Part shown: piece after piece, positions 3,033-61,460 of the stretch
Position numbering within the stretch: the stretch's first letter is position 1
Layout of the letters: each line of letters opens with the position of its first letter
Source: Candidatus Latescibacterota bacterium
Lineage (GTDB): Bacteria > Latescibacterota > UBA2968 > UBA8231
Reading direction: 5' to 3'
Length of the DNA: 64,000 nt
Assembly (NCBI GenBank): GCA_965219385.1
Contig: CBDCNM010000002.1
Location: forward strand, 2,860,305 to 2,924,304
Position numbers and translations under genes: made by a program
Notes under the pieces: model-generated
Databases searched by the model: none
What the model saw: the letters and a program-made list of their open reading frames with translations, nothing else
What the model was told of the DNA's origin: nothing

Positions 3033-3057
3033 CCACCCGGGCCCTGCGGATCCTGAG

Positions 3058-4504
3058 CTCGACTTTATCCATTTATGTAGCGTACGAGACGGTGTGTATC
3101 AAGCGGTTGAGTAGGCTTCGAGGGATTTTTATCAGGTCGTGTTGGTTGGGCAGGTTGGAAAAAGCCTGCCAGAGCCGTTGTCGGACCCAGGCCACGGCAT
3201 CGGAAAAGGTGGGTTTTCGTTTGCCATACCAGGCCGTGGCATGGCAGGGGGAGGCGCTTTTGGGGGCCAGCCGATTGGCGATGAGGGCGACCAGACTAAA
3301 CAAGGCCAAGATGACCGGCGTGGTCCGGGCAATGGCCCGCTCATTCCATTGGCGTTGGGTTTCCATGCCCAGATGGGCGCGGGCTTCCTCAAAGGTAGTT
3401 TCTACCGACCAGCGTTGGAGAAAATAGGTCAGCATTTGCCGAGGGGACAGACGCACATCGGTCGAGAGCAAGGCTTGGGGCGCGAAGCGGCCGGCCGGGT
3501 CTCGGATCAGCAGCCAGCGGAGGGGCACGGCGGGCAAGCCAGTGTGATACCACAGCGCCGTTTGGCTGTAGGTTTCCACTGTATAGGGGCCGGCGGCATA
3601 CCACCGGTCCAGGGTGAGGGGGTGCCAAGGGGTAGTCGGATCGTCCAGGTGCTGCTGGAGGGTGGGCTGCCGGGCGCCTTTGCCGCGGGGGCGTCCCCGC
3701 GTGTGCGGCGTGCGGGTTGGTGGTGGGTCATACAGGGCCGCATCCAACCGCAAGCGGGTAATCAGCCCCACGTGGGGCCGAACCGCGTCGAGAAAGGCCA
3801 AGGCGGAGAAGGTGCTATCGGCGACCACGACCAGCCGGCGGGTGGGCAGCCAGCGCGCTACCAGCTTGAGCATAGTCTGCCCCCGTTGCAACAGGGTGAG
3901 GGGGGTGCGCTGGCGCTGAGTATAGTAGCGGGCCGACGGACACAGCACACTCATAAAGGGTAAGGCCCAACTTCGATCCGCCCAAGGGATAGGCGCTACC
4001 AGCATCAACGACAGCCAGCGCAAGCCGCTAGCCTTGACCAGGTGGGGCCCACTCGAGCGGACGGGATCCCGGTAGATGCCTCGGGCCCCAATCTGGGCGC
4101 CCCGGCGCCGCTCGATGGTCTCATCCAGGCCCAGGACCAGGGGCCCGTGGGGGGCAAAGGCGGCCACCAACGCCTGGAGGAGTAGCTTACTGCCGGCCAG
4201 GGGCGACCACACACAGCGGTTGAGGATCCGGTGGTAGGTTTGAAAGGTAGGCTGTTGGCTCAAGCCCAACACCTCCAACACGGCGCTGACCGTGCGTTTA
4301 CCCGGGGCTAACAGCGCCCCGACCAACAGCGTCTGAGCCTGCGGCCAAACGCGGCTCGAAAAAAGGGGGGCAAAGGGCGACAAAATCGTTATTATATCCT
4401 TCGGCAGGGGGCTCATCGGTTTCTCCTGGGCTGTCGATGCTTGGATACCATCAACAGTACGGAGGATACCGGCCTCCTGCCATGCGCGTTTGGATAAAAT
4501 CGAG
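3058..4504 (-). mobile_element. IS701-family-like insertion sequence, copy 1 (1447 bp). Terminal inverted repeats CTCGACTTTATCC / GGATAAAATCGAG; 5-bp TSD CTGAG.
   Basis: Identical in length to the copy at 18168-19614 with a single base difference. Imperfect 13-bp TIRs. CTGAG present at 3053-3057 and 4505-4509. Confidence 0.8.
3073..4416 (-). CDS. DDE transposase, IS701/IS4-superfamily-like (447 aa).
   Basis: Contains the LGLDETIERRRG...IYRD block that corresponds to the DDT...KKG...YCG region of IS701-type transposases. Start MSPLPKDII at 4416 has an AGGAGA RBS. The longer ORF to 4614 is an upstream in-frame extension. Confidence 0.8.
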   Translation of the reverse strand: MSPLPKDIITILSPFAPLFSSRVWPQAQTLLVGALLAPGKRTVSAVLEVLGLSQQPTFQTYHRILNRCVWSPLAGSKLLLQALVAAFAPHGPLVLGLDETIERRRGAQIGARGIYRDPVRSSGPHLVKASGLRWLSLMLVAPIPWADRSWALPFMSVLCPSARYYTQRQRTPLTLLQRGQTMLKLVARWLPTRRLVVVADSTFSALAFLDAVRPHVGLITRLRLDAALYDPPPTRTPHTRGRPRGKGARQPTLQQHLDDPTTPWHPLTLDRWYAAGPYTVETYSQTALWYHTGLPAVPLRWLLIRDPAGRFAPQALLSTDVRLSPRQMLTYFLQRWSVETTFEEARAHLGMETQRQWNERAIARTTPVILALFSLVALIANRLAPKSASPCHATAWYGKRKPTFSDAVAWVRQRLWQAFSNLPNQHDLIKIPRSLLNRLIHTVSYAT

Positions 4505-4650
4505 CTGAGAAGCCGTCTGGAAATCTCCGCTGAGCCCCAAACGTGGCTGCCAGCGCCGTGGGGCACCGCTCCACCTGCTGCCGCGGGCACTCGCAGCCCA
4601 CCACTCTGCCTCATTCACCTGAAAGCAGTAAAGGAGCTGGTCATGAATGT

Positions 4651-5639: not shown

Positions 5640-5779
5640 GCCAGGGCCGTGGCCCACTCGATACTTTGCCTGGAATAATCAGGCGGGAAGGGAACCAGTC
5701 GTAGGTGACCAGCTCGACAAAGCCGGTATAGCCGACTTCTTTGAGGGCGCCAAACACGGCTTCCCAGTCCACGATATCC
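5640..5779 (-). pseudogene. Remnant C-terminal fragment of a sugar phosphate isomerase/epimerase (xylose-isomerase-like TIM barrel).
   Basis: Translation ...DIVDWEAVFGALKEVGYTGFVELVTYDWFP... is the typical C-terminal motif of that family. No N-terminal part exists; the fragment abuts a solo MITE end. Confidence 0.4.
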
Positions 5780-5829
5780 CCAGAGGCACAATCCCTGCAC
5801 GGCCAACCGCCGATTCCGTGAAGTACTGA
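5780..5829 (+). repeat. Solo right-end fragment (~50 bp) of the MITE-like repeat family.
   Basis: ccagaggcacaatccctgcacggccaaccgccgattccgtgaagtactga matches the right ends of the copies at 11501-11604 and 39540-39788. Confidence 0.6.
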
Positions 5830-6141
5830 ATATGTCTGGCGAGGATCTTGATTTTGTCGTACAATTCTCCACCTATTATTCTGGAATGCCATGCTCGAAA
5901 GCATAACCGACATGATAATCGGAGCGGGCGGTACGGTGGGGTACCTGTACGCGTGGAACCGGATCCTGGCGGCCAATAGGGTGGACGAAGAGGCCGGTCC
6001 CGAGGATGCCAGGCGAGCCCGGTGGAGGACGAGGTACTGGCAGGTGTTCTTTTTTGTTTTGCTCACTCCGTATGTACTGCTGTTGTACTATTTGATGGGA
6101 CAGGTGCCTTGAGGTGAGTTTTTGTAAACGAGGATAAAGAG

Positions 6142-8523: not shown

Positions 8524-9321
8524 ATGCCAACACCTATGGAGGAATTTTTCTTTGACCTGAGGGGGTACGCGATCCTCCCGGGAGCACTTGCTGCCGATCA
8601 CGTGCACGCCATCAACGCATGGGTCGACGCCTTGCCGCCGTTGCAGGCGGGCGACTGGCTCGGGAATATCGAGGTCCACACCTACGGCGGAATTGACGGG
8701 ATGAACCTCCAGAACATCATCGAGGGCGGCGAAATCTTCGAACGTCTGATCGACCATCCTGCCTGGATCGGCCTGGTGCGCCACTACCTGGGTATAAACG
8801 AGCCGTTTATCAACGAGGATTTTCTCAACCTGCGCGGCAAGGGCGGGTACATCGGCATCCACTCCGGCGGCTGGAAGAGCGACGGGCGGGTCAGGAGCGG
8901 GGTGCAGAACGGGAATTGGTGTGTCCAGTACATGTCGTTGATCGTGGCCCTGAACGATATCGGTCCGGGGGACGGTGCGACCGTGGCCATTCCCGCGAGC
9001 CACAAATCGTCCTTTCAGCACCCCCAGCAGGTGGAAGGGGTCGGGATCACCAAAAGGCCGGGCCAGGAGGTGGAAGGCACGGTGGAGCTTTATTTGCGGG
9101 CGGGCGATGCGGTGTTGTTCAACGACATGCTGATTCACGGCTCGGCGGATCGAACCAATCCCGGGTATCGCCGCACCCTGGTATTCCGCTACCTTCCCAG
9201 TCTGTACGCCCATCGCTGGCGCACGGTGCCGTCCGACGAGTTGCTGGCGCGCCTTACCCCCGAGCGCAGAAAAATCGTACAACCAGTCGAGCCGCACCGA
9301 CGGCCCGTGGCGAAAATCTAA
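8524..9321 (+). CDS. Phytanoyl-CoA dioxygenase (PhyH) family Fe(II)/2-oxoglutarate oxygenase.
   Basis: Size and overall pattern of PhyH-family proteins. GAGGAG RBS before ATG 8524. Confidence 0.6.
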   Translation: MPTPMEEFFFDLRGYAILPGALAADHVHAINAWVDALPPLQAGDWLGNIEVHTYGGIDGMNLQNIIEGGEIFERLIDHPAWIGLVRHYLGINEPFINEDFLNLRGKGGYIGIHSGGWKSDGRVRSGVQNGNWCVQYMSLIVALNDIGPGDGATVAIPASHKSSFQHPQQVEGVGITKRPGQEVEGTVELYLRAGDAVLFNDMLIHGSADRTNPGYRRTLVFRYLPSLYAHRWRTVPSDELLARLTPERRKIVQPVEPHRRPVAKI

Positions 9322-9356
9322 GACGGCTTCTTAAAATTCCTGGTGCGCCCCGTTGC

Positions 9357-11500: not shown

Positions 11501-11604
11501 TCGGTACTTCACGAAATACCCGTATTTGGCCCTCAAGGCCGTGCGGGGATGTTGCCAGAGGCACAATCCCCGCACGGCCAACCGCCGATTCCGTGAAGTA
11601 CTGA
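11501..11604 (+). repeat. Short (104-bp) member of the MITE-like repeat family with both TIRs.
   Basis: tcggtacttcacgaaat ... atttccgtgaagtactga. Internal sequence matches both ends of the 245-bp copies. Confidence 0.65.
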
Positions 11605-11701
11605 CAATCTCAGTGAGCAAGATATCCGCGAACATGTCAAACGACGCAAAGCGCGGTGAACAGGGACGACGAGCGCGGGCGGGCTTTGACCGCCGGTAAA
11701 A

Positions 11702-12661: not shown

Positions 12662-14268
12662 GGGCTCAACTTTTTGGTTCGGGCGCCCCAAAGAGCAACC
12701 CCGGTCAGACACAGGGCGGCCAGCAGGGCGACCCGGGCGAAGATATCGCCGTGGCGGGTGTAGAAGGTGCGGTCCGGCCCGACCGGCAACTCGTGGACGC
12801 GCACCGCCGGCTCGAAGATATCCGTGGCCTGAAAGGTGCGTCCAAAGGGATCTATGAATACGGAAATTCCGCTGGTGGCGCAACGGGCTATGGAGATGCG
12901 GTTTTCGACCGCGCGCAGGATGGCCAGCTGGGCATGCTGATACGGACCGGCGGTCTCGCCGAACCAGGAATCGTTGGTGATATTGACCAGTAATTGCGCT
13001 CCGGTTTCGACGCTGTGCCGCACCAGATCCGGAAAGACGGATTCAAAGCATATCAGCGCGGCAAAATCCGCCTGTGGATGCGCGAAGAGGGTGTGCTCCG
13101 TGCCCGGGGCGAATTCGGCTGGTCCCAGATCGCCGGTGAGGGCCTTCCAGTCGATGTCGCGCAACAGCGGGATGCTGTCTCGGTAAGGGGTGCGTTCGCC
13201 AAAGGGAACCAGATGCATTTTGGCATAGGATTGCGGTTCCGGGTGATGGGGCCTGAAGAAGAAGGCGGAATTGTAGGGTTCGCCCCGGGCCTGGTCGTAG
13301 TCCGAAGCGCCGGTGAGGAGGGGGACCTGCAGGTCTTCCACCAGTTGCTCGACTCGACTCCTGCAGGCAGGGCGCAAGCGCAAGTAACAGGGTAGGGCGG
13401 TCTCGGGCCAGACCAGGAGGGCCGGTTCCTGGTCCACGGCCCGGCGCGAAAGCTCTTCGAGGGTGGTGAAGCTGCGTTCAAGCCCCCTGGCCCCCCACTT
13501 TTCTCGCAGGCTCAGGTTGGGCTGAACCACGGCTACGCGAATGCTTGCGCCGCTGTCCGCCGTGGCTGGAATGGTCGCGCGGCCGTAGAGATAAGGAACC
13601 AGCAGTCCCAGGCCCAGCAAGCCCAAGGCGGCCAGCCGCTGCCGCTGCTCAGAGGCCGTCAGCACCCATAGAGCCAGTACATTCAGCAACACAATCCAGC
13701 ACGAAATGCCGTACACGCCGGTAAATGCCGCGTATTGAATCAGCGCCGGGAAAGCGGCCTGGCTATGTCCCAGCAGCAGCCATGGGAAACCCAGTTCGCC
13801 CAGGGACAGCAGGTATTCCTGGGCGGTCCACAGGATGGGTGCGGCCCCCACGGCCCCCTGCCCCCACTGGCCTTGAAGCAGGTTCTGGACTCCGGCGAAG
13901 ACGCCGATAAAAAGGCCCAGATAGGCCGCCATCAGAAAAGCGCCGCCTACCACGGCCGGCCCGCCACCCTGAGTGTGCGCCACCCAGTATAAACTCGATA
14001 GGTTGAAAACAAAGCCCGCGAGCCAGCCGCGGTGGAACCCCTCCTTGAAGGAGCCTCCCGGCAAGGCCAGCAACAAAGGGATCAGCGCCACGCAGGTCCA
14101 GCCGCCGTGGAAGAGAAAGGCCAGTGGATGGTGGGGGTGGCAGGGAAAGGCAAGCGCCAGCAGGGCGCCCGAAATAAGGGGGAGAGTCCAGTGATACAGT
14201 CTGGTCTGAACCGAAGACAGAGGGGGCATGACGCGGGGGAATATAGTCCAGGCCGGGGGGCCGGGCAA
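12658..14268 (-). CDS. lnt: Apolipoprotein N-acyltransferase (Lnt). N-terminal polytopic membrane region plus CN-hydrolase domain.
   Basis: Hydrophobic N-terminal half, then RVAVVQPN...WPE...LICFE nitrilase-superfamily signature. Exact start uncertain. Confidence 0.8.
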   Translation of the reverse strand: MPGPPAWTIFPRVMPPLSSVQTRLYHWTLPLISGALLALAFPCHPHHPLAFLFHGGWTCVALIPLLLALPGGSFKEGFHRGWLAGFVFNLSSLYWVAHTQGGGPAVVGGAFLMAAYLGLFIGVFAGVQNLLQGQWGQGAVGAAPILWTAQEYLLSLGELGFPWLLLGHSQAAFPALIQYAAFTGVYGISCWIVLLNVLALWVLTASEQRQRLAALGLLGLGLLVPYLYGRATIPATADSGASIRVAVVQPNLSLREKWGARGLERSFTTLEELSRRAVDQEPALLVWPETALPCYLRLRPACRSRVEQLVEDLQVPLLTGASDYDQARGEPYNSAFFFRPHHPEPQSYAKMHLVPFGERTPYRDSIPLLRDIDWKALTGDLGPAEFAPGTEHTLFAHPQADFAALICFESVFPDLVRHSVETGAQLLVNITNDSWFGETAGPYQHAQLAILRAVENRISIARCATSGISVFIDPFGRTFQATDIFEPAVRVHELPVGPDRTFYTRHGDIFARVALLAALCLTGVALWGARTKKLSP

Positions 14269-14421
14269 GAAGGGGTGGTACGGAATATGCTGTCAATGGG
14301 GCGATGCTGCGGCGTAAGACAGCTTCTAAGGGAGAGATTATACAGGAGTGCGTCTGTGCTGTTCGGCACGAAAAGGTGACAGGTATGTTTCGCTTACTAC
14401 ACACTCGGAGGTTATGTCGTT

Positions 14422-15162
14422 GTGCATAGGCACTTAAAATTGAAAGGAGACGGCCGCCCGCGAATCGCCGGACCTATTTTGCGTGAACAAATCTCCCCCA
14501 TGGAGGGGATCGCTCCAATAGACTTGCCGCGTGAGCGCCTGGCACGCCATGGAGTCGAGGCCTTGAAGGATTTCGAGTTGCTGGCTATCGTGCTGGGGAC
14601 CGGGTACCGGGGTCGCAATGTCCTGGAGGTTGCACAGGCTATTCTCAAGGACCACCCCAAAGAGGAGTTGATGGAGATGGGCCTGGAACGCTTGAGCCAC
14701 CTCAAGGGCCTGGGGAAGGCCAAGGCCAGCGTACTGGTGGCGGCCTTCGAACTGACCCGGCGTGGCCTGCAGCAGGGAATGGGTGTTTTGCCGACCATCT
14801 CCACTCCGGCAGAGGCCGTGGCCTTGCTGACCGAGATCAAGGACCAGCGCAAGGAGTACTTTCTCTGTCTGTATCTGAATGCGCGCAATCAGGTGATCCA
14901 CAAAGAGGTGATTTCGATCGGCAGCCTGTCGGCGTCGATCGTGCATCCGCGCGAGGTCTTTCAGGTAGCTGTACATCATTCTGCCGCCGGTATCATTCTG
15001 GCGCACAACCACCCTTCGGGGGATGTATCGCCGAGCAAGGACGATATTGAATTGAGCGGCCGTCTGGTAAAGGCCGGAGAGATAATGGGCATTGAGGTGC
15101 TGGACCACATCATCATCAGCACAGTGGAATTCCTGAGTTTGAAGGAACGGGGTCTGATGTAA
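14422..15162 (+). CDS. radC: RadC-family JAB/MPN-domain protein (UPF0758).
   Basis: HNHPSGDVSPSKDD JAMM motif; helix-hairpin-helix N-terminal part. GTG start at 14422; an alternative ATG at 14500. Confidence 0.75.
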   Translation: MHRHLKLKGDGRPRIAGPILREQISPMEGIAPIDLPRERLARHGVEALKDFELLAIVLGTGYRGRNVLEVAQAILKDHPKEELMEMGLERLSHLKGLGKAKASVLVAAFELTRRGLQQGMGVLPTISTPAEAVALLTEIKDQRKEYFLCLYLNARNQVIHKEVISIGSLSASIVHPREVFQVAVHHSAAGIILAHNHPSGDVSPSKDDIELSGRLVKAGEIMGIEVLDHIIISTVEFLSLKERGLM

Positions 15163-15322
15163 AAGTAAAGGGGGGCGGCGGATTTTACAGATTGATAAAA
15201 TTGTATGTTGAGCTTGATTATTGTCTGAGAAGAAGTATATTTGAGGGGTAAGTGATGCTCGCTCTTCCAATTTGTTGGTCGTGGTCGACCATGGCCAATG
15301 GTTAGATGTGTGGGGGACGTTT

Positions 15323-15997
15323 ATGGAACTTGATAATGAAAATCTTAAAAATGAAGATTTGATTCCGGTTCGGATCCTCGGCATCTATCCTTATGGAGAC
15401 CCAAACGATCCCAGACAGCTCCTCGAGGGTTTTCTGGTGTTTCTGAAGGGGCGGGAGGACAAGGTCGTACCCATTTCTATCGGACGTTTTGAGGGGCAGG
15501 CCCTGGCCCTGGCCCTGCGCAAGGTGCCTTCGTCCAGACCTTTGCCTTACGATCTGCTCAAGGACTTGCTGGAAAAGATGAACGGCGAAGTAAAGCAGCT
15601 TGTGATTCACACCTTGAAGAAGAGGGTCTTCCACGCCTATTTACTCATACAGGCTCAGGAGCGGGAGTTGATGCTGGATTGTCGTCCCAGCGATGGCATG
15701 ATCCTGGCGACCCTGACGGGGGTGTCCATCTACATAAGTCCACAAATCGTGGAAGAAGCTGGTCGGGAGCTGAACGGGCTGCTCGAAAATTCCGATTTAT
15801 CCGAAGAGTCCCTGCTGCTCGAAAGCGATGATGACCCGCTGGCCGGGTTGCGAGAAGCCGAGCCCCAGGAAGAGGAGGAGATGAGCGAACTGGACAAGCT
15901 CAAGGCCCAGCTCAACCAGCTCGTCGCCGAAGAAGCCTACGAAGAGGCGGCCAAGGTCAGGGATTTGATCAGCCGGATGGTGAGGCAAAGTACTTAG
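15323..15997 (+). CDS. Bifunctional nuclease (DUF151) domain protein with C-terminal UVR motif.
   Basis: LIPVRILGI...HTLKKRVFHAYL BFN core. C-terminal ELDKLKAQLNQLVAEEAYEEAAKVRDLI UvrB/C-type motif. Start ATG 15323 chosen over the track's upstream extension. Confidence 0.7.
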   Translation: MELDNENLKNEDLIPVRILGIYPYGDPNDPRQLLEGFLVFLKGREDKVVPISIGRFEGQALALALRKVPSSRPLPYDLLKDLLEKMNGEVKQLVIHTLKKRVFHAYLLIQAQERELMLDCRPSDGMILATLTGVSIYISPQIVEEAGRELNGLLENSDLSEESLLLESDDDPLAGLREAEPQEEEEMSELDKLKAQLNQLVAEEAYEEAAKVRDLISRMVRQST

Positions 15998-16924
15998 AAG
16001 CCGTTTTAAAACCCCTGTGGTTATGCGAGTCGTTTGAGCAACAGATGGGTCATCGCAATGTAAATGAGGGCTTCGCTATTCCGTGTCAAGACTTCATAAT
16101 CCTTCGAGAGACGGCGAAAATTCAACAACCAAGCAAAGGTGCGTTCAACCACCCATCGCCATTTCATCACCTGAAATCCCGGGCCTTCTCGTTCGACCAC
16201 TTCCAAGTCAATTTTGTGGGTTCGCTTCAAACGGGCAACCCACTCTTTCAAGGTCTCACCCGAGTAGCCGCCGTCGCCCCACAGCTTGCCAAGCCGCGTC
16301 CAGCCAGCGGCCCAATAGCGTTTGAGTAACTCCATCAGCCCGTCCCGATCCGCCAAGTCGCCTGCCGATACAAACGCAGAGAGGATCAACCCCAGCGTAT
16401 CGACAAGGAGATGGCGCTTGCGGCCATTGACCTTCTTGCCAGCATCGTACCCTTTTACTTTACCTTGTGTTGCGGTCTTGATGCTTTGAGCGTCTATACT
16501 GCCTGCTGAAGCGGCGGGCTTGCGACCTTGACGACGTCGCTCCCTTCTTGAGAGGGCCTGATGGATCTGCTGGAAGAGGCCTTCTTCGCTCCAGGTGTTG
16601 AAATACCTCTACACGGTTTGCCAGCATCCATACTCTTTGGGCCGCATCCGCCATGGGCATCCCGTCTTGGTCAGATACACAATGCCGTTGAACACTTGGC
16701 GCAGATTGACGGGTGGGCGACCCGGACCGCCCGGATGCCATTTGCGTTTGGGCCGCAGCGTCAGGAGAAGTTGCCATTGCGCTTCGATCAAATCTGTCGG
16801 ATATTGCCTTTGCGTATTCATCCTTATCCTTTCGTTTCAGGTGGTTTTGGACAACCTGAATTTGGATAGATGAATACGCACTTTCCACTTTTTTCTCTAC
16901 TCCTCTACCTTTTTAAAACAGCTT
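15998..16924 (-). mobile_element. IS5-family (IS1031/IS427-group-like) element, 927 bp. TIR AAGC(C/T)GTTTTAAAA, flanked by CTTAG.
   Basis: aagccgttttaaaa at 15998-16011 and ttttaaaacagctt at 16911-16924. CTTAG at 15993-15997 (includes the BFN gene stop codon TAG) and at 16925-16929. Confidence 0.7.
16021..16821 (-). pseudogene. IS5-family transposase (267 codons) interrupted by one in-frame amber codon.
   Basis: A single frame encodes MNTQRQYPTDLIEAQWQ...GCPWRMRPKEYGCWQTV-TAG-RYFNTWSEEGLFQQIHQAL...GYDAGKKVNGRKRHLLVDTLGLILSAFV...FAWLLNFRRLSKDYE. The TAG at 16609-16611 sits where family members have Tyr (WQTVYRYF). No frameshift is needed. Confidence 0.7.
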
Positions 16925-16952
16925 CTTAGGCCGTTTTTGGTCGCAACGCGAT

Positions 16953-16990
16953 GAGCCCCTTCGAAGTAACTCGAAGGGGCTCATTTTTTA
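16953..16990 (+). terminator. Rho-independent terminator (12-bp perfect stem GAGCCCCTTCGA / TCGAAGGGGCTC, loop AGTAAC, then ATTTTTTA).
   Basis: Seen directly in sequence. It lies immediately downstream of the IS5-like insertion and was probably the original terminator of the BFN gene (and/or the convergent sodC). Confidence 0.7.
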
Positions 16991-17000
16991 TGGGCTGGAG

Positions 17001-18167
17001 CTAAGTACACGACAGTAAGCTAAGTGGTGGTACGGCCCTGATTTAGGTTTATTTGTAATCGGTCCAACTACCAATAAAGTGGCTAAACCCAGGAGCCGCA
17101 CCATGCTTATTCATACGCTCAAAAAAGCACTTACGCAAGGGCGCGTCCCCCTTACGCGCCACCGTATCGAACTCGTCAGTCGGTTCGTGTGTGCGCTGAT
17201 GCAAGTGCGTTCGGTCAATATGAAAAAACTCGCGTGTAGTCTGTCGGGGCTGGCTAACGTTGAAAGTCAGTATCGTCGCCTTCAGCGTTTTTTTAGCAGC
17301 GCGGTCTCCCCGGCGGTGTTTACCGAGTTGATCGTCTCCAAGTTGGTTGGCCCCGGCCAGCCCCAGGTGTTAGTCATGGATCGTACCCATTGGAAGTTGG
17401 GTCGCACCGATCTGAATGTGTTGTGTGTAGGCTTGGTTGATCAAGGCGGGTCTATTCCGTTGGTCTATCAGTCGTTGCAAAAGCCGGGCAATTCCAACAC
17501 CGACGAACGCAAGGCGCTGCGGACCAAGGTGTGGTCCTACCTCGATCCGGGCGCGTGCTGTCTGGTCGCCGAGCGCGAATTTATCGGTCGAGACGGGTTT
17601 GCTTTTCGGTTGAAGCAGCCGGTCGATTTTGTCCTCCGCCGGCGCGGTAATACATCGCTTACCCTCGACGATGGTCGGCGGCGCTATGCGGCCACCTTCA
17701 ATGCACGCATGCCCCGAGGCACCACCCGATACGATCCACACACGACACTTGATGACGGGCTGAGCTTGAATGTGGTGGGTCACCGTCCCACCCACGGCCA
17801 ACGCATCCTGCGGATCACCCATCGAACCGACCTCCAACAGGTGCTTGATTTATATGGCCAGCGCGGGGCTATCGAGACGGCATTTGCTTGTTTGAAATCG
17901 AGGGGCTTTACCCTCGAAGATACCCATTTGACCCCTCCCCAACGCTTGCACTTGCTGCTGGGATTACTGGCGTGGACGCTCCTGGGGGCACTACTGGTAG
18001 GACCGCAGCTACATCAAAGAAAACCCATCCTCCTAAAAAAACATGGACGAAGAGCCATAAGCCTCTTTCGAAAAGGATTAGACCCACTCACACAGATCAT
18101 ACACCAAGCACGAGACCAACCTAAAATCACCCGACAATATCAACCCATTTTACTGTCGTGTACTTAG
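17001..18167 (+). mobile_element. IS4-family-like element, 1167 bp. Perfect 18-bp TIRs CTAAGTACACGACAGTAA / TTACTGTCGTGTACTTAG; inferred 9-bp TSD GGGCTGGAG.
   Basis: TIRs at 17001-17018 and 18150-18167. GGGCTGGAG at 16992-17000 and again at 21148-21156, beyond the later nested insertions. Confidence 0.7.
17103..18167 (+). CDS. IS4-family DDE transposase (354 aa). Its stop codon TAG is the last 3 nt of the right TIR.
   Basis: MLIHTLKKALTQGRVPL...LVMDRTHWKLGRTDLNVL...LVDQGGSIPL, typical of IS4-type (DDE_Tnp_1) transposases. AGGAG RBS before ATG 17103. Confidence 0.65.
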   Translation: MLIHTLKKALTQGRVPLTRHRIELVSRFVCALMQVRSVNMKKLACSLSGLANVESQYRRLQRFFSSAVSPAVFTELIVSKLVGPGQPQVLVMDRTHWKLGRTDLNVLCVGLVDQGGSIPLVYQSLQKPGNSNTDERKALRTKVWSYLDPGACCLVAEREFIGRDGFAFRLKQPVDFVLRRRGNTSLTLDDGRRRYAATFNARMPRGTTRYDPHTTLDDGLSLNVVGHRPTHGQRILRITHRTDLQQVLDLYGQRGAIETAFACLKSRGFTLEDTHLTPPQRLHLLLGLLAWTLLGALLVGPQLHQRKPILLKKHGRRAISLFRKGLDPLTQIIHQARDQPKITRQYQPILLSCT

Positions 18168-19614
18168 CTCGACTTTATCCATTTATGTAGCGTACGAGAC
18201 GGTGTGTATCAAGCGGTTGAGTAGGCTTCGAGGGATTTTTATCAGGTCGTGTTGGTTGGGCAGGTTGGAAAAAGCCTGCCAGAGCCGTTGTCGGACCCAG
18301 GCCACGGCATCGGAAAAGGTGGGTTTTCGTTTGCCATACCAGGCCGTGGCATGGCAGGGGGAGGCGCTTTTGGGGGCCAGCCGATTGGCGATGAGGGCGA
18401 CCAGACTAAACAAGGCCAAGATGACCGGCGTGGTCCGGGCAATGGCCCGCTCATTCCATTGGCGTTGGGTTTCCATGCCCAGATGGGCGCGGGCTTCCTC
18501 AAAGGTAGTTTCTACCGACCAGCGTTGGAGAAAATAGGTCAGCATTTGCCGAGGGGACAGACGCACATCGGTCGAGAGCAAGGCTTGGGGCGCGAAGCGG
18601 CCGGCCGGGTCTCGGATCAGCAGCCAGCGGAGGGGCACGGCGGGCAAGCCAGTGTGATACCACAGCGCCGTTTGGCTGTAGGTTTCCACTGTATAGGGGC
18701 CGGCGGCATACCACCGGTCCAGGGTGAGGGGGTGCCAAGGGGTAGTCGGATCGTTCAGGTGCTGCTGGAGGGTGGGCTGCCGGGCGCCTTTGCCGCGGGG
18801 GCGTCCCCGCGTGTGCGGCGTGCGGGTTGGTGGTGGGTCATACAGGGCCGCATCCAACCGCAAGCGGGTAATCAGCCCCACGTGGGGCCGAACCGCGTCG
18901 AGAAAGGCCAAGGCGGAGAAGGTGCTATCGGCGACCACGACCAGCCGGCGGGTGGGCAGCCAGCGCGCTACCAGCTTGAGCATAGTCTGCCCCCGTTGCA
19001 ACAGGGTGAGGGGGGTGCGCTGGCGCTGAGTATAGTAGCGGGCCGACGGACACAGCACACTCATAAAGGGTAAGGCCCAACTTCGATCCGCCCAAGGGAT
19101 AGGCGCTACCAGCATCAACGACAGCCAGCGCAAGCCGCTAGCCTTGACCAGGTGGGGCCCACTCGAGCGGACGGGATCCCGGTAGATGCCTCGGGCCCCA
19201 ATCTGGGCGCCCCGGCGCCGCTCGATGGTCTCATCCAGGCCCAGGACCAGGGGCCCGTGGGGGGCAAAGGCGGCCACCAACGCCTGGAGGAGTAGCTTAC
19301 TGCCGGCCAGGGGCGACCACACACAGCGGTTGAGGATCCGGTGGTAGGTTTGAAAGGTAGGCTGTTGGCTCAAGCCCAACACCTCCAACACGGCGCTGAC
19401 CGTGCGTTTACCCGGGGCTAACAGCGCCCCGACCAACAGCGTCTGAGCCTGCGGCCAAACGCGGCTCGAAAAAAGGGGGGCAAAGGGCGACAAAATCGTT
19501 ATTATATCCTTCGGCAGGGGGCTCATCGGTTTCTCCTGGGCTGTCGATGCTTGGATACCATCAACAGTACGGAGGATACCGGCCTCCTGCCATGCGCGTT
19601 TGGATAAAATCGAG
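18168..19614 (-). mobile_element. IS701-family-like insertion sequence, copy 2 (1447 bp), inserted at CTTAG at the tip of the IS4-like right TIR.
   Basis: Identical to 3058-4504 except for one substitution (c at 3667 versus t at 18777). CTTAG at 18163-18167 and 19615-19619. Confidence 0.85.
18183..19526 (-). CDS. DDE transposase, IS701/IS4-superfamily-like (447 aa); a D-to-N variant of copy 1.
   Basis: Protein identical to the 3073-4416 product apart from HLDDPTT becoming HLNDPTT. Confidence 0.85.
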   Translation of the reverse strand: MSPLPKDIITILSPFAPLFSSRVWPQAQTLLVGALLAPGKRTVSAVLEVLGLSQQPTFQTYHRILNRCVWSPLAGSKLLLQALVAAFAPHGPLVLGLDETIERRRGAQIGARGIYRDPVRSSGPHLVKASGLRWLSLMLVAPIPWADRSWALPFMSVLCPSARYYTQRQRTPLTLLQRGQTMLKLVARWLPTRRLVVVADSTFSALAFLDAVRPHVGLITRLRLDAALYDPPPTRTPHTRGRPRGKGARQPTLQQHLNDPTTPWHPLTLDRWYAAGPYTVETYSQTALWYHTGLPAVPLRWLLIRDPAGRFAPQALLSTDVRLSPRQMLTYFLQRWSVETTFEEARAHLGMETQRQWNERAIARTTPVILALFSLVALIANRLAPKSASPCHATAWYGKRKPTFSDAVAWVRQRLWQAFSNLPNQHDLIKIPRSLLNRLIHTVSYAT

Positions 19615-19619
19615 CTTAG

Positions 19620-21143
19620 CAGGCCGTTGAAAAAGGCTGAAAAGTTCTGCTATATCAAAAATAGGCGACTTGGCATACAAGTCTATTCTTTCTATTCTAG
19701 ATTAGTAATAGCTGAAGGAGGTTGTTGTATGTCGATGAGCAAGCGTCGAGAAAGTCAGCAGCAGGAGATGTGGGTACAGACCCATGACCTGCCCGAGGCG
19801 CCGGGGCATCCGTTTTATGCCCAACTCAATAAGCTGCTGGCATCGCATGGATTTGATGCCTTCGTGGAAGCGCGCTGCGCCCCCTATTATGCGGAGACCT
19901 TGGGACGACCCAGTATTGCCCCCGGGGTCTATTTCCGCATGCTCATGATCGGCTATTTCGAGGGCTTGGGCTCGGAGCGCGGCATGGACGGGCGGGTCGC
20001 CGATTCGCTGGCCTTGCGCCACTTTCTGGGCTACGCCTTGACCGAGACCACACCGGACCATTCGAGCCGGTCGCGCATTCGTCAGCGCCTGCCGCTGGAG
20101 GTGCATCAGGAGGTCTTCAACTGGGTGCTGAAGGTGCTGGCCCAGGAAGGCCTGCTCAAGGGGAAGACAGTGGCGGTGGACGCCACCACGCTGGAGGCCA
20201 ACGCCGCCCTGCGCCGCATCGTGCGGCGCGACAGTGGGGAAAGCTACCACACCTATCTGGAGGGGCTGGCCCAGGCCGAAGGCATCGAGACGCCGACGCG
20301 GCAGGATCTGGCCCAGCTCGACCAGAAGCGTGCGCACAAAGGCTCCAACCAGGACTGGCAACACCCCCATGACCCGGAGGCGCGCATTACCAAGATGAAA
20401 GACGGGCGTACCCACTTGGCGCACAAGGCGGAGCATACGATCGATCTGGACACCCAGGCCCTGGTAGCGATTCAGGTGTGCGGCGCTGACGAGGGCGATA
20501 CGGCGTCTCTGCCCTGGAGTCTGCTGCAGGCCTCCATGAATCTGGAGGCGAGCCTGGTCGCCGAGGCGGCTCACAAAGGACGGCCGCCGCCGCCCGTGCT
20601 CACCGAAGTGGTAACGGACAAGGGCTATCACAGCAATTACACCGCCAAGACGTTGAAGCGCGCTCAGATCCGCAGCTACCTTTCCGAACCCGGTCGCGGG
20701 CGCCGCCAGTGGAAGAATGATCCCCAGGCCAAGGCGGCCGTGTATGCCAATCGGCGTCGCATACGAGGGGTCCGTGGCCACGCCCTGCAACGGCTTCGCG
20801 CTGAGTACGCGGAACGCAGTTTCGCCCACGCTTATGAAACGGGGGGCCTGCGACGCACGTACCTGCGCAGTCAGGACAAGATCTATAAACGCCGGTGTAT
20901 TCATGGCGGCGCTTTTAATCTGGGGTTGGTGATGCGCAAAATCACCGGGAAGGGGACTCCGAGGGGTCTCCATGGCCTGATATCGGGCTTTTTCGTCGTT
21001 ACTAACCGGCTCAAACGGGCTTGGGATCGCATTAGCAAAGGTCTGGGTGCTTTCGAGACCTTTGCTTGCAAATGGAGGTTCAAGATCGGTGCCGTCCTAT
21101 CCCACAGTGCATTGTGCAAAAACCCTGGTTTTTCAACGGCCTG
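19620..21143 (+). mobile_element. IS1182-family-like element, 1524 bp. 15-bp perfect TIRs CAGGCCGTTGAAAAA / TTTTTCAACGGCCTG; 4-bp TSD TTAG.
   Basis: TIRs at 19620-19634 and 21129-21143. TTAG at 19616-19619 and 21144-21147. Confidence 0.75.
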
Positions 21144-21147
21144 TTAG
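19729..21147 (+). CDS. IS1182-family (IS5-superfamily) transposase with DUF772-like N-terminal domain (472 aa). Its stop codon lies in the TSD.
   Basis: GRPSIAPGVYFRMLMIGYFEGLGSERGM... is the hallmark N-terminal domain. GAAGGAGG RBS before ATG 19729. The ORF reads through the right TIR and stops at TAG 21145-21147. Confidence 0.8.
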   Translation: MSMSKRRESQQQEMWVQTHDLPEAPGHPFYAQLNKLLASHGFDAFVEARCAPYYAETLGRPSIAPGVYFRMLMIGYFEGLGSERGMDGRVADSLALRHFLGYALTETTPDHSSRSRIRQRLPLEVHQEVFNWVLKVLAQEGLLKGKTVAVDATTLEANAALRRIVRRDSGESYHTYLEGLAQAEGIETPTRQDLAQLDQKRAHKGSNQDWQHPHDPEARITKMKDGRTHLAHKAEHTIDLDTQALVAIQVCGADEGDTASLPWSLLQASMNLEASLVAEAAHKGRPPPPVLTEVVTDKGYHSNYTAKTLKRAQIRSYLSEPGRGRRQWKNDPQAKAAVYANRRRIRGVRGHALQRLRAEYAERSFAHAYETGGLRRTYLRSQDKIYKRRCIHGGAFNLGLVMRKITGKGTPRGLHGLISGFFVVTNRLKRAWDRISKGLGAFETFACKWRFKIGAVLSHSALCKNPGFSTAC

Positions 21148-21167
21148 GGGCTGGAGTCTTGTTCCGC

Positions 21168-21713
21168 TTACTGGAGCATCTCGATTACGCCGCAGGCGAC
21201 TCGCGCGCCGGCGTTGCCCGCCTTGTTCTGCGGATCGTCTCCCGGGTTGTTGTCGTCCGGACCGGCATGGATGACAAGGGCCGAACCATCCTCGTCGAAC
21301 AGCCCGTTCACGCCTTCACCCAGGGTGACCAGTGAGGCCAGCATTACCGTTGTCCCGACGCCATCCGGTCCCACCTGCAGATTGGGCAAATCGCCGGCGT
21401 GGCGACCGTTGGGATTTTTCAGGCCGTGGGCTTTGCCATAGGGGTTGAAGTGGCCGCCGGATGATTTGAAACTCGGTGCTTCGGCCTTGCCCACGGAGTG
21501 GATGTGGAAGGCGTGAGGTCCCGGGGTGAGGCTGTGGACATGGGCCACGATCGTCACTCCTTCCGGCCCTTCCGTGAGGGTGGCAATGCCTATCTTTTTA
21601 CCCTCGGGGTTGAGCAGATGAGTTATGGCCATTTTGCCGCCTTCGGCGCGGGCGGTTGCACTCAACGCAACCCACAGGCCCAGGGCGCAAGCCATGGATT
21701 TCAGATATTTCAT
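21168..21713 (-). CDS. sodC: Periplasmic Cu/Zn superoxide dismutase with signal peptide.
   Basis: Signal peptide MKYLKSMACALGLWVALSATARA, then HAFHIHSVGKAE, GGHFNP, HAGDLPN, IHAGPDD copper/zinc ligand motifs. Confidence 0.85.
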   Translation of the reverse strand: MKYLKSMACALGLWVALSATARAEGGKMAITHLLNPEGKKIGIATLTEGPEGVTIVAHVHSLTPGPHAFHIHSVGKAEAPSFKSSGGHFNPYGKAHGLKNPNGRHAGDLPNLQVGPDGVGTTVMLASLVTLGEGVNGLFDEDGSALVIHAGPDDNNPGDDPQNKAGNAGARVACGVIEMLQ

Positions 21714-21977
21714 GAAAACATCCTCCCAGGTAAAACGTCCGATTCGAAATCAGGCCTCTTCCTTGCGATCGAGAGACTTACCCTCCTGTAGTAAAACTTC
21801 CACTAGATACTAAAGATACCTTACTCCAGCATAAATACCAACAAAAATATCCTGGTAGAACGGGAATACGGAAACCTTTGTTTTTTTGTCGAAATACATA
21901 TATTCACTCCGGGATTCGCGCCGTTCGGACTGGGGAGGCGCACGCGAATCGACTCCATGGTGCTGTTGAGGTGAGCT

Positions 21978-22781
21978 ATGAGGACTAGTCTTAAAAACCG
22001 ACCCCCCGCTCGGGGCACACCGGGAACTTTAAAAAGAATTCTAAAAAGGATTCTTGGGCGCAAATCGGTCATTCTGTTGGGGGGGCTCGGCGTGCTGGCA
22101 GGATGTCGGCAGGAGCCCCGGCAAATGGAGCCGAACCGGGATCCTTTTACCGCCCGGAGGACGCGCATGGTGGAGGAACAGCTGGCGGCGAGGGATATCA
22201 TTGATCCGGTGGTTTTGCGCGTCATGCGGCGAGTGCCCCGGCACCTGTTCGTGTCCGAGCGGGAGCGGAAATACGCCTATGAGGATCACCCCCTGCCCAT
22301 CGGCGAGGAGCAGACGATTTCACAGCCTTATATCGTTGCTTTTATGACCCAAGCCCTGCTTTTGCAGCAGACCGACAAGGTCCTCGAAATCGGCACGGGA
22401 TCGGGCTACCAGGCAGCGGTGCTGGCCGAGATCGCAAAAGAGGTCTACACCATCGAGATCATCCCGGCGCTGGCCCAACGTGCAGCCGCACTGCTGGCCG
22501 AGTTGCACTACGACAATGTGACGGTGCGCACGGGCGACGGCTATCTGGGCTGGCCCGAACAGGCCCCTTTTGACGCCATCGTGGTAACCGCCGCCCCCGA
22601 CCACATTCCCCCGGCCCTGGTCGAACAGCTGAAGGAGGGAGGTCGGCTGGTCCTGCCGGTGGGGGACCACTATGATTACCAGGAGTTGACGAGGGTCGTC
22701 CGGCGCGGCCGGGAAAGGGTGGTGGAAACCCTGCTGCCGATGGTGCGTTTTGTGCCGATGACCGGCAAGGCGCAAGAATAA
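21978..22781 (+). CDS. pcm: Protein-L-isoaspartate O-methyltransferase with N-terminal lipoprotein signal (lipobox LAGC).
   Basis: ISQPYIVAFMTQAL...LEIGTGSGYQAAVLAE SAM-methyltransferase motifs. N-terminus MRTSLKNRPP...VILLGGLGVLAGCRQ. Confidence 0.8.
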   Translation: MRTSLKNRPPARGTPGTLKRILKRILGRKSVILLGGLGVLAGCRQEPRQMEPNRDPFTARRTRMVEEQLAARDIIDPVVLRVMRRVPRHLFVSERERKYAYEDHPLPIGEEQTISQPYIVAFMTQALLLQQTDKVLEIGTGSGYQAAVLAEIAKEVYTIEIIPALAQRAAALLAELHYDNVTVRTGDGYLGWPEQAPFDAIVVTAAPDHIPPALVEQLKEGGRLVLPVGDHYDYQELTRVVRRGRERVVETLLPMVRFVPMTGKAQE

Positions 22782-22785
22782 ACGA

Positions 22786-23712
22786 TTAGAAACTACCGCT
22801 CAGCGAGATCCGGTGGACGTGGTCCAGGTCCGGGTGGGAACTGAAGGCGTAGTCGAGGCGGTAGGTCTGCATGGCGAGACCGGCCCCGGCCGTAAGGCCG
22901 AGGGGATCTTCGTTCTGCCCGATTGGCTGGGTATTGTACCCGGGGCGCAGATAGAGACCATTGCCAACGCGGATCTCGAGCCCGAAGGCCAGGTAGGGAT
23001 CGCCGTCGTTGGGCAGGTTGAGATCCGCCAGAATCATCATGGGCAGGGGAGCGTGAGCCGGGCGGTGGGAGAGCCCGAGGCGGAGATTGACCGGCAGGGA
23101 GTCGGTGAAATTGTCGGTATAACCGCTGCGGACCGAACCCATATTGGCAATCGAAGCGCCCAGCTTCATGCCTTTGAGTGGGCCGGAAACCAGCAAACCA
23201 GCATCGATCACGTAGGCATCCGAAGAAAATTCGTCGATATTGGAATAGACGGCCTTCAGATTGATTCCGACTGCCAGCCGGTCGTGCCAGAGGCGCTGGG
23301 CCATGGTGAGGTAGGCGGCTATATCAGAGGCGCTGAAACTGCCCAGATTCTGGCCTTCTTCGTCGGTGCGGCGCATATCCCCGGAGTTGAAATAGTTCAG
23401 GCTCAGGCCCCAGACGCGATGCTCCCCGGGAAAGGCCACGCTGAGAAAGCCGATTTGAGTGTCGAACAGGTAGCGGGTCAGCGACACCGTGGCGGCGCGG
23501 TTTTTCAACCCCAGAAGACCGGCCGGGTTCCAGGGGGTGGACTCGAGGTCGCCGGCGACCCCGGCGTAGGCGCCACCCAGGGCGGTGGGGCGGGCGCCGA
23601 CTCCGACCTTGAGAAAATTGAAACCCGTGGTGCCGGCATTATCGTTGATGCCAAAGGCAGGGCGCAGGGCGGCCGCCAGAAAAACCGCCAGGAGTACAGA
23701 TGATCTGAGCAT
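22786..23712 (-). CDS. PorV/PorQ-family outer-membrane beta-barrel protein (type IX secretion associated).
   Basis: Signal peptide MLRSSVLLAVFLAAALRPAFG, then GFNFLKVGVGARPTALGGAYAGVAGD, the characteristic PorV/PorQ N-terminal motif. The track ORF is over-extended into gatA. Confidence 0.6.
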   Translation of the reverse strand: MLRSSVLLAVFLAAALRPAFGINDNAGTTGFNFLKVGVGARPTALGGAYAGVAGDLESTPWNPAGLLGLKNRAATVSLTRYLFDTQIGFLSVAFPGEHRVWGLSLNYFNSGDMRRTDEEGQNLGSFSASDIAAYLTMAQRLWHDRLAVGINLKAVYSNIDEFSSDAYVIDAGLLVSGPLKGMKLGASIANMGSVRSGYTDNFTDSLPVNLRLGLSHRPAHAPLPMMILADLNLPNDGDPYLAFGLEIRVGNGLYLRPGYNTQPIGQNEDPLGLTAGAGLAMQTYRLDYAFSSHPDLDHVHRISLSGSF

Positions 23713-31033: not shown

Positions 31034-31059
31034 CTCTTGCTGCTTTTAAATAAGGACCA

Positions 31060-31302
31060 TCAGTACTTGACGAAATGAGCGAACGGCCGTGCGGGGCTTG
31101 TGCCTCTGGCGTTTTATGAGGCCCAGGGCGCTCTTGCCCCTCGCCACACCCCCAGGTAGGCCTGAATCCCAGAGCCTCCTTTTCCCCGCTCCAGCCCCTA
31201 CCCCCTCCCTGCTGCTGCGCCTGCTCGCAGTCCCCACCGCCCTGCCGGCACCCCTCCCGGCCTTGAGGTCCAAATAGGTACGGGTATTTCGTGAAGTACT
31301 GA
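31060..31302 (-). repeat. Full-length (243-bp) MITE-like element with 17-bp TIRs.
   Basis: tcagtacttgacgaaat ... atttcgtgaagtactga. Reverse complement of the copy at 39540-39788. Confidence 0.7.
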
Positions 31303-31305
31303 CTA

Positions 31306-31340
31306 TCAGTACTTGACGAAATGAGCGAACGGCCGCAAGG
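31306..31340 (-). repeat. Partial tandem second copy of one MITE end.
   Basis: tcagtacttgacgaaatgagcgaacggccg repeated directly after the full copy. Confidence 0.5.
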
Positions 31341-31349
31341 GGACCTCGA

Positions 31350-39539: not shown

Positions 39540-39788
39540 AGCTCACGAAATACCCGTACCTATTTGGACCGCAAGGCCGGAAGGCCGGGAGGGGATGTTG
39601 CCGGCGGCGTTTTATGGGGGGTGGAGCGAGGAAAAGGGAGCTCTGGGACTCAGGCCTGCCTGGGAGGGTGGGCTGCGAGCCGGCGTAGCAGTGGGAAGGA
39701 GGAGCGGGGCAAGAGCGCCTTGGGCATCATAAAACGCCAGAGGCACAAGCTCTGCACGGCCCCGCCCGCCGATTTCGTGAAGTACTGA
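39540..39788 (+). repeat. Full-length (~249-bp) MITE-like element, inverted relative to the copy at 31060-31302.
   Basis: Left end agctcacgaaatacccgtacctatttggacc (tip slightly degenerate); right end ccgatttcgtgaagtactga. Confidence 0.7.
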
Positions 39789-61342: not shown

Positions 61343-61460
61343 GGGGCTCTCCTCAATCCCCGCGGGCTTGGGAGTCCCTTCGGATGCGGGTGCCTTGTCT
61401 ACGCCGCTCACGCTCGGGGCACACCGGGAAATTCCAGACGGCTTCCGAGAACAATTTCGC

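Follow-up and report, generated by a model that had tools for sequence, protein, structure and literature searches.

How four different insertion sequences (IS) come to lie end to end in one short gap between two genes, and in what order they arrived, is the question raised by a 64,000-nucleotide stretch of contig CBDCNM010000002.1 (assembly GCA_965219385.1) from an uncultured Candidatus Latescibacterota bacterium, which was analyzed whole and is referred to here as the window. Tandem and nested IS clusters are common. At this locus, a bifunctional-nuclease gene (BFN) and a convergent Cu/Zn superoxide dismutase gene (SodC), originally separated by ~82 bp, are spaced by a 5.2-kb stretch with four transposase-coding units, each with its own terminal inverted repeats, and the array consists of four IS placed end to end in that single convergent gap. 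Two sister genomes, 99.9% identical to the window at the locus and differing from it there only in discrete IS content, establish the order of insertion as IS4-like, then IS1182-like, then IS701-like. We consider it likely that this tandem array was built by stepwise insertion, with a short shared target, regeneration of the target site and a permissive location.

Composition of the array

Family assignments were made through hidden Markov model (HMM) scans of the window proteins with Pfam and with NCBIfam, whose models carry curated cut-offs, and transposase domains are coded by all four elements. The initial annotation of this DNA, made from its letters alone, had recognized four different IS elements, and the HMMs agree, giving IS5, IS4, IS701 and, below its cut-off, IS1182. 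The direct and inverted repeats listed in that annotation were recovered at the same positions, save for the IS5-like boundaries, which are shifted by 1 bp at each end (15997-16925). In window coordinates, with the strand given where one applies, the array and its borders are:

15323-15997, + strand: bifunctional-nuclease gene (BFN_dom and UVR domains; Pfam PF02577, PF02151)
15997-16925, - strand: IS5-family element IS5a, 929 bp, inverted repeats GAAGCCGTTTTAAAA / GAAGCTGTTTTAAAA
16950-16989, + strand: intrinsic-terminator-like hairpin (15 pairs) with a T-run, between the IS5-like and IS4-like elements
16992-17000: left 9-bp duplication GGGCTGGAG of the IS4-like element, exact match to 21148-21156
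17001-18167, + strand: IS4-family element, 1167 bp, starting CTAAG, with perfect 18-nt terminal inverted repeats (NF033591)
18163-18167: left CTTAG of the IS701-like element, doubling as the last 5 nt of the right IS4-like repeat (from the window and the empty sites)
18168-19614, - strand: IS701-family copy 2, 1447 bp, inverted repeats CTCGACTTTATCCA / CTCGATTTTATCCA (NF049999)
19615-19619: right CTTAG of the IS701-like element, whose last 4 nt (19616-19619, TTAG) are the left IS1182-like duplication
19620-21143, + strand: IS1182-like (IS5-superfamily) element, 1524 bp (PF05598; NF033551 below cut-off)
21144-21147: right TTAG duplication of the IS1182-like element, its left copy being 19616-19619
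21148-21156: right 9-bp duplication GGGCTGGAG of the IS4-like element, exact match to 16992-17000
21168-21713, - strand: Cu/Zn superoxide dismutase gene (PF00080), convergent to BFN and right border of the original gap

The BFN gene, called as a 224-aa protein in related contigs, ends in a TAG stop codon (15995-15997) that overlaps the insertion point of IS5a, and the hairpin at 16950-16989, beyond the element, is the original terminator of the gene, now moved 932 bp away; the location of the IS5-like element between the BFN stop and its terminator had been correctly described from the outset. An Rfam scan of positions 14000-23000 gave no family match, and base composition carried no foreign-island signal apart from the IS elements themselves.

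Order of insertion

Related loci were retrieved by exact-protein look-ups; three transposases and the genes on either side of the array were placed in this way on long contigs from two metagenome assemblies. The IS4-like transposase gave no record in the contig index by exact look-up, but a protein identical to it is encoded on a third contig, of 4.48 Mb, which is probably where the window comes from. Together with the window the related loci define three states of the locus, which differ by the presence of IS701-like copy 2 and of a further IS5-family element, IS5b:

State A (loci L014/L051): BFN-IS5a-terminator-IS4-IS1182-SodC, with the IS4 right end joined directly to IS1182 (GTGTACTTAG followed by CAGGCCGTTG)
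State B (loci L001/L050): state A plus the 905-bp IS5b inside IS4, at the window TAA 18122-18124
State C (the window): state A plus IS701-like copy 2
18122-18124: TAA site in the IS4-like element, empty in the window and holding IS5b in the sister genome (L001-window alignment)

States A and B constitute the empty site for IS701-like copy 2, because both keep the IS701-free IS4/IS1182 junction (GTGTACTTAG followed by CAGGCC), and the window is in turn the empty site for the state-B insertion of IS5b. The initial annotation had proposed that copy 2 inserted at the CTTAG of this junction and had pointed to empty-site comparison with related genomes as a check; the comparison yields, in two genomes, the exact IS701-free junction that had been predicted. 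The array is not an assembly artefact, its BFN/IS5a and IS1182/SodC junctions being reproduced by short-read contigs from several further samples.

The precedence of the IS4-like element over the IS1182-like one, which had also been proposed, follows from the duplications in the window, because the IS4 right repeat ends in the four bases that form the left TTAG of the IS1182-like duplication (TTAG at 19616-19619 and 21144-21147), and the chromosomal sequence outside that end, GGGCTGGAG (16992-17000 and 21148-21156), contains no TTAG. The IS1182/IS701 order, on the other hand, is unreadable from the window, because both orders starting from ...GTGTACTTAG-GGGCTGGAG give the same string: insertion of IS1182 at TTAG followed by IS701 at the left CTTAG is equivalent to insertion of IS701 at CTTAG followed by IS1182 at the right TTAG. 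Deduction of this step from the window alone was therefore discarded, and IS1182 is placed before IS701 because states A and B hold the former without the latter. The near-identity of the IS701-like copies to one another is in line with this placement. The order that had been reconstructed from nested duplications thus stands on the evidence of the sister genomes, whereas its derivation from the duplications fails for the IS1182/IS701 step.

Boundaries and target-site duplications

The IS701-like element provides the largest sample of insertions. The inverted repeat of copy 2, CTCGA(C/T)TTTATCCA, matches at 13/14 positions (18168-18181 / 19601-19614), and its transposase (18183-19526, 447 aa) scores 308.5 bits on NF049999 (cut-off 170) and 99.7 bits on PF13546 (DDE_5); in the stretch TYFLQRWSVETTFEEAR the Y-2-R-3-E-6-K motif is altered, with Y three residues before R and R, not K, at the last position. 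A further copy lies upstream in the window:

3058-4504 (3053-4509 with duplications), - strand: IS701-family copy 1, with CTGAG at 3053-3057 and 4505-4509

The two copies differ by one mismatch, and the right flank of copy 1 leads directly into an IS5-terminus-like motif, GAAGCCGTCTGGAAA. Since IS701-like copies are 99.9-100% identical to one another, the family has moved recently; relatives of the transposase with ~72% identity are present in complete Candidatus Latescibacterota chromosomes.

Ends were located in 39 distinct IS701-like copies, 14 of them in this species and 25 in other genomes (other Latescibacterota, Entotheonella, Massilia, Blastocatellia and further genomes). The flanking 5-mers are identical in 20 of the 39, and in 14 of those they read CTNAG; the others, each from one copy, are CCTAG, GTAAT, TTCAG, CTTAC, CTAAT and ACTAG. 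The duplication made by this clade is genuinely 5 bp long, with CTNAG as its consensus, and, since the identical 5-mers include non-CTNAG ones, the IS701-like ends are CTCGAC.../...GTCGAG. The initial annotation had raised the possibility that AGCT forms part of the IS701-like ends; AG...CT as ends, with a 1-bp duplication or none, is ruled out by the six copies with identical non-CTNAG 5-mers, and one copy reading AT instead of AG before CTCGAC also counts against AG as an element end. A metagenome scan with the IS701-like end for additional flanks returned 0 matches, and a literature search found no relevant description of a CTNAG-targeting IS.

The terminal inverted repeat of the IS4-like element, CTAAGTACACGACAGTAA, is perfect over 18 nt (17001-17018 / 18150-18167); the repeat finder gives 21 nt, the outer 3 nt being a chance match with the flanks. 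Its transposase (17103-18167, 354 aa) scores 160.8 bits on NF033591 (cut-off 152), matches PF01609 and carries a complete Y-2-R-3-E-6-K motif, YGQRGAIETAFACLK. The GGGCTGGAG direct repeat is a 9-nt match at two predefined positions (chance ~4e-6) and lies within the 7-13 bp of the IS4 family; it is a single instance because the element is single-copy (one copy per genome, in a cluster of three members with one per large contig), and a diverged relative in L030 shows none. CTAAG and CTTAG are this element's own terminal bases and not a duplication. The stop codon of the transposase, TAG (18165-18167), coincides with the last 3 nt of the right inverted repeat.

For the IS1182-like element, the inverted repeat CAGGCCGTTGAAAAA is perfect over 15 nt (19620-19634 / 21129-21143) and four copies carry 4-bp duplications (TTAG, CTAG, CTAG and CTAT). 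The best family for its transposase (19729-21147, 472 aa) is NF033551, at 142.4 bits against a cut-off of 270, with IS5_4 at 71 bits against 140; DUF772 is clear (56.8 bits) and DDE_Tnp_1_6 falls below the gathering score (15.9 bits, E = 0.017). The closest plasmid homologues, 47-50% identical, are annotated just as "transposase" or "IS5 family", and a size of 1524 bp with a 4-bp duplication is within the ~1.3-1.95 kb and short duplication of the IS1182 family. Judging from these matches, this fourth element would be best called IS1182-like or IS5-superfamily.

The IS1182-like element itself has no stop for its transposase frame, which closes at TAG 21145-21147, beyond the element's end and within the duplicated target; the Cys-stop is TGT/TGC+TAG in all copies (window 21142-21147). 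In the IS1182-like and IS4-like cases alike, the terminal TAG doubles as coding signal and target core. In the L014 copy of this locus, the ribosome-binding site and start codon from which the IS1182-like transposase is read are covered by a 53-bp tandem duplication (L014 2392-2505), seen only there and absent from the window and the other copies, and another locus (L013 2392-6156) holds two IS1182-like elements, 84% identical and 700 bp apart, with duplications CTAG and CTAT.

The inverted-repeat arms of IS5a were measured at 15993-16011 / 16911-16929, and its duplication copies are placed as follows:

15994-15996: left TTA duplication copy of IS5a (from the flanks of relatives L009 and L028)
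16926-16928: right TTA duplication copy of IS5a (read in the window sequence)

The ends of IS5a, GAAGCC.../...GCTTC with TTA, fit the G(A) ends and 2-4-bp duplication of the IS5 family. Its transposase is one reading frame broken by a single in-frame TAG (16609-16611), where relatives have Tyr. The fragments match DUF4096 and DDE_Tnp_1/DDE_Tnp_1_2 in Pfam and score 85.4 and 60.9 bits on NF033580, each alone below the cut-off of 110, the gene being split by the stop; an intact 268-aa relative with DUF4096 and DDE_Tnp_1 shares 62% identity with the full frame over 261 aa. IS5a is single-copy and was found in every related contig recovered, adjoining BFN. Because of the in-frame TAG, this copy is probably non-autonomous. 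In the sister genomes the gene is called as identical 70-aa and 104-aa fragments, and the same stop is expected in both, which makes IS5a an old, probably non-autonomous resident.

A 5-bp CTTAG duplication for the IS5-like element is ruled out by the flanks of IS5a-type relatives, T-TTA...TTA-G (L009) and T-TGA...TGA-G (L028), which fit a 3-bp TNA or a 4-bp TNAG. The IS5a duplication would thus be the 3-bp TTA, with a 4-bp TTAG (TNAG, with asymmetric ends) fitting as well; the two are inseparable, since G follows the right TNA in 13/13 IS5a-type right ends, making that end always CTNAG. In the related IS5b (905 bp, inverted repeat GAGTCTCTAACAAAAC) the 3-bp duplication is unambiguous, reading TAA twice and TTA once.

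Target sites and abutment of elements

The initial statement that all four elements are flanked by (C)TTAG does not hold, as it mixes the tips of IS4, the last base of an IS5-type end with its TNA duplication and a G behind it, and the duplications that the IS1182-like and IS701-like elements really make. The shared target preference or hotspot that it was taken to suggest is nonetheless supported, and can be made more specific as TNA(G), YTAG and CTNAG. The array that pre-existed these insertions offered 7 YTAG and 8 CTNAG sites, and the IS1182-like and IS701-like elements both used the IS4 tip.

This use of termini extends beyond the window. Termini of IS5, IS1182 or IS4 type are touched by 11/14 IS701-like copies in this species and by 7/25 elsewhere, the background being 3/85 CTNAG sites of the window that adjoin an IS terminus. 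The folded sequence profile just outside the IS701-like 5-mer is A-C-G-G-C-T-T, and the right ends of small IS5-type elements always read ...GGCTT-CTNAG. In a different Latescibacterota genome (L030), the CTTAG that ends a diverged IS4-like element (~80% amino acid identity) is occupied by an IS701-like element that is diverged as well (67% to the query transposase), and the two are arranged tail-to-tail as in the window. In L015 and L061, IS701 lies between two IS5-type ends, and L023 reads IS701-CTTA-[IS5]-TTAG-IS701, the outcome expected if IS5 insertion at C-TTA-G made two CTTAG sites and both were then hit. A 930-bp IS5-type element (267-aa transposase, copies 100% identical) abuts IS701 at five loci. 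Movement of such an IS5-IS701 pair as a composite was considered and rejected, since no duplication is common to the outer flanks and the same IS5 end adjoins IS701 in one orientation or the other.

At these five loci (L012, L061, L062, L064 and L065) it is the same transposase-stop end of the IS5-type element that meets IS701, in either orientation of the latter. The IS701-IS5-IS701 sandwich of L023 (533-4359) is another pile-up elsewhere, and at least four of the IS loci that were retrieved lie on the 180-kb contig ctg832394.

A motif composed of GGGGCACACCGGGAA(A)TT and then the IS5-terminus-like AGACGGCTTC (or its complement) recurs in intergenic DNA of the window (4505-4545, 9320-9351 on the - strand, 22007-22052 and 61409-61457) and in the flanks of L010 and L026; it lies immediately beside IS701-like copies of this species and of another Latescibacterota genome. 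With up to two mismatches allowed, the pattern CTNAGARGCCGTYTG has 11 occurrences against 1.5 expected. The motif could be a solo IS end, a remnant of a miniature inverted-repeat transposable element or a regulatory site.

Discussion

The history that best accommodates these observations would have begun from a gap which, without IS4 and IS5a, would read a single GGGCTGGAG and ACTTAGGCC. An IS5-family element of 929 bp entered the TTA at the BFN stop, parting the gene from its terminator and acquiring its nonsense mutation later; an IS4-family element of 1167 bp landed on the far side of the terminator, duplicating 9 bp, and an IS1182-like element of 1524 bp went into the TTAG that ends IS4 on the right, duplicating 4 bp. 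In the lineage of the window only, an IS701-family element of 1447 bp then entered the CTTAG at the same junction with a 5-bp duplication; the sister lineage instead received a 905-bp IS5-family element at a TAA within IS4. We infer that the related DDE transposases all choose short, T-N-A-centered near-palindromes, TNA(G), YTAG and CTNAG, and that such sites are themselves provided by the CTTAG tip of the IS4-like element and by small IS5-type ends, where ...GGCTTC runs into TNA and then G. Since each insertion duplicates its site, the junction would be regenerated and multiplied, and newcomers would abut residents rather than disrupt them; the convergent intergenic gap being presumably harmless, the array would persist. 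Selection certainly helps: the array occupies the space between convergent genes, and the state-B fifth element landed inside IS4 without harm.

Several points weigh against this account. The sampled strains yielded no empty site for the IS5-like, IS4-like or IS1182-like insertions: strains lacking IS5a, IS4 or IS1182 were sought through the BFN and SodC proteins, and IS5a adjoins BFN and IS1182 adjoins SodC in all contigs, while a metagenome scan with the terminator for IS-free states gave 0 matches. Because all strains carry these elements, the corresponding steps are read from duplications and inverted-repeat logic only. Abutment leaves the order of arrival open outside the window junction, which is the one with an empty site, and IS5-type insertion into the TNAG of an IS701 flank would look no different; next to IS701, three IS5 copies are each bounded by a perfect duplication, with mismatched IS701 flanks. 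The background for IS-terminal CTNAG sites comes from a single 64-kb window, most loci were recovered through their IS701 content, which biases the sample, and selection against genic insertions could yield part of the enrichment. The IS1182 assignment lies under the NCBIfam cut-off. Finally, flanks are non-identical in 19/39 IS701-like copies, including a recurrent class with T adjoining the element, CTTAT on one side or ATAAG on the other; post-insertion recombination or a less regular mechanism is therefore also at work. Recombination is a frequent cause of missing duplications (PMC11708052), and centre-base swaps (CTTAG/CTAAG and the reciprocal) would be the expected product of recombination between IS701-like copies.

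In the T-adjoining class, CTTAT occurs on the transposase-start side in 5 IS701-like copies and ATAAG on the stop side in 6. Such flanks were seen in L010, L019, L021, L024, L026, L028, L038, L060 and L062, never as an identical pair; in three copies this base is the sole difference between the two flanks, and no explanation was found. Two loci from the same sample on different contigs, L009 and L015, have reciprocal IS701-like flanks (CTTAG/CTAAG and CTAAG/CTTAG), as expected from two copies recombining through inversion or translocation.

A first alternative goes beyond the short core, and we regard it as possible at somewhat less than even chances: the IS701-like transposase would actively read an extended target that includes an IS5-, IS1182- or IS4-type terminal repeat (~GGCTTC-TNA-G), so that IS termini and solo IS-end-like motifs would serve as true landing pads and not just as bearers of CTNAG. 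This agrees with the ...ACGGCTT preference in the outer flanks and the adjoining of IS termini by 11/14 copies, as well as with the location of both window copies at IS-terminus-like CTNAG sites, one of them the solo motif without an IS body, and with the same solo motif beside IS701-like copies in two different genomes (L010 and L026). However, 21/39 copies have no recognizable IS terminus alongside, identical-flank insertions are found at unrelated sequences (L017, L020, L022, L027, L032, L033 and L036), and abutment could equally come from IS5-type insertion into the TNAG of IS701 flanks, which fits three IS5 copies. That an IS701-family clade widespread in Latescibacterota homes preferentially to IS5-, IS1182- and IS4-type termini and to solo IS-end-like motifs is put forward tentatively; active recognition of IS termini beyond CTNAG would be an extension of stepwise insertion at a short shared target, plausible but unproven.

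A second alternative, which we deem unlikely, dispenses with any preference beyond the short core and views the array as the survivors of selection in a neutral gap and in IS DNA. All elements do lie in the former ~82-bp convergent intergenic region, the fifth IS of the sister genome landed within the IS4 element and not at its tip, and none of the three genomes has as yet an insertion in the CTTAG sites on either side of IS5a or in the CTAAG of the IS4 left end. Yet two different IS took one terminal (C)TTAG when 7 YTAG and 8 CTNAG sites were on offer, another genome has the same junction of IS4 tip and IS701 formed by diverged elements, the share of IS701-like copies abutting IS termini in this species is far beyond any plausible neutral share of CTNAG sites, and the folded flank profile outside the 5-mer reads ...ACGGCTT. 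It is very improbable that IS701 came first and was later precisely excised, that the array is an artefact of assembly, or that it was acquired as a block: nested duplications fit either order, and repeats can be collapsed or shuffled in long-read metagenome assemblies, but two independent assemblies contain the clean IS701-free junction and are each set apart from the window by a discrete element with its own duplication, precise excision would be needed in both genomes, IS701 copy 2 is 99.9-100% identical to other copies while IS4 and IS5a are single-copy and IS5a is decayed, and the outer junctions recur in short-read contigs from several samples.

Comparison with known families

All elements belong to or near long-known DDE IS families, and they are new members, not a new kind of system. 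With the IS701 family (PMC2266710, NF049999) the IS701-like element shares a DDE transposase above cut-off, a length (1447 bp) within 1400-1550 bp, short inverted repeats, the lack of a Y-2-R-3-E-6-K motif and a short, strongly conserved duplication. That duplication was given as "exactly four" bp in a survey of 27 elements (De Palmenaer et al. 2008, PMC2266710), unlike the 5-bp CTNAG found here. Because membership today rests on the transposase, the 5-bp duplication, with boundaries reproduced in 39 copies, marks a subgroup and not an exclusion from the family. ISfinder also lists an ISAba11-type group with 5 bp. To our knowledge, frequent abutment to other IS termini has not been described for the IS701 family.

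The IS4-like element resembles the IS10/IS50-type subgroups of the IS4 family, for which CT ends and 8-9-bp repeats are reported (PMC2266710), in its HMM score above cut-off, YREK motif, 5'-CT ends and 9-bp duplication; at 1167 bp and 354 aa it is slightly below their listed 1200-1350 bp, and its CTAAG/CTTAG termini happen to be targets of the neighboring IS. The small IS5-family elements (IS427/IS1031-type; NF033580, DUF4096 and DDE_Tnp_1) share with the IS5-like element found here a length of ~0.9 kb, GA/GAG ends and 2-4-bp duplications centered on TA/TNA. Paracoccus IS427-group elements have 2- or 4-bp duplications (PMC3281130, Table 2), and many members of that group have a two-frame frameshift arrangement, whereas IS5a has a single frame with a premature stop. 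Features common to the IS1182 family and the element found here are a length of ~1.5 kb, a single long open reading frame, an N-terminal DUF772, ~15-bp repeats and a 4-bp duplication, ISPse1 being 1653 bp long with 16-bp inverted repeats and a 4-bp duplication (PMC3281130); the differences are a score of 142 bits against the NF033551 cut-off of 270 and an insignificant C-terminal DDE_Tnp_1_6 match.

An IS that recurs at one set point in the end of another mobile element is also known from IS4321/IS5075, which target the inverted repeats of Tn21-family elements (cited in PMC11187229). Those elements are DEDD, RNA-guided and inserted at one exact position and in one orientation with no duplication, whereas the IS701-like element uses a DDE transposase, duplicates 5 bp at a short palindrome, inserts in either orientation and has many copies away from IS ends.

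Other direct and inverted repeats of the window are unrelated to the IS array (5773-5836 / 11548-11611, 31048-31096 / 31294-31342, 31085-31154 / 39692-39761 and 31253-31294 / 39543-39584). A further mobile or invertible segment could lie between the inverted pairs, which are ~8.5 kb apart.

Conclusions

With three corrections, the reconstruction in the initial annotation is largely right. The locus offers a clean, dated example of IS turnover in an uncultured phylum, with three 99.9%-identical genomes that differ by the latest IS to join the array; since these natural genomes differ at the locus only by their newest IS, at least two elements are currently active. For annotation, it is also of use that five Latescibacterota IS types now have verified boundaries, inverted repeats and rules of duplication; the locus adds the caution that insertion order is not always fixed by nested duplications alone. 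The use of the (C)TNAG tip by each new arrival is ordinary transposon biology, unusually well documented. Short palindromic targets and target-site duplication make IS junctions self-renewing insertion sites, providing a simple account of IS islands with no need for nesting or disruption. If homing to IS termini were true, IS ends would act as landing pads, leading to self-extending, non-disruptive arrays that spare both host genes and resident elements.

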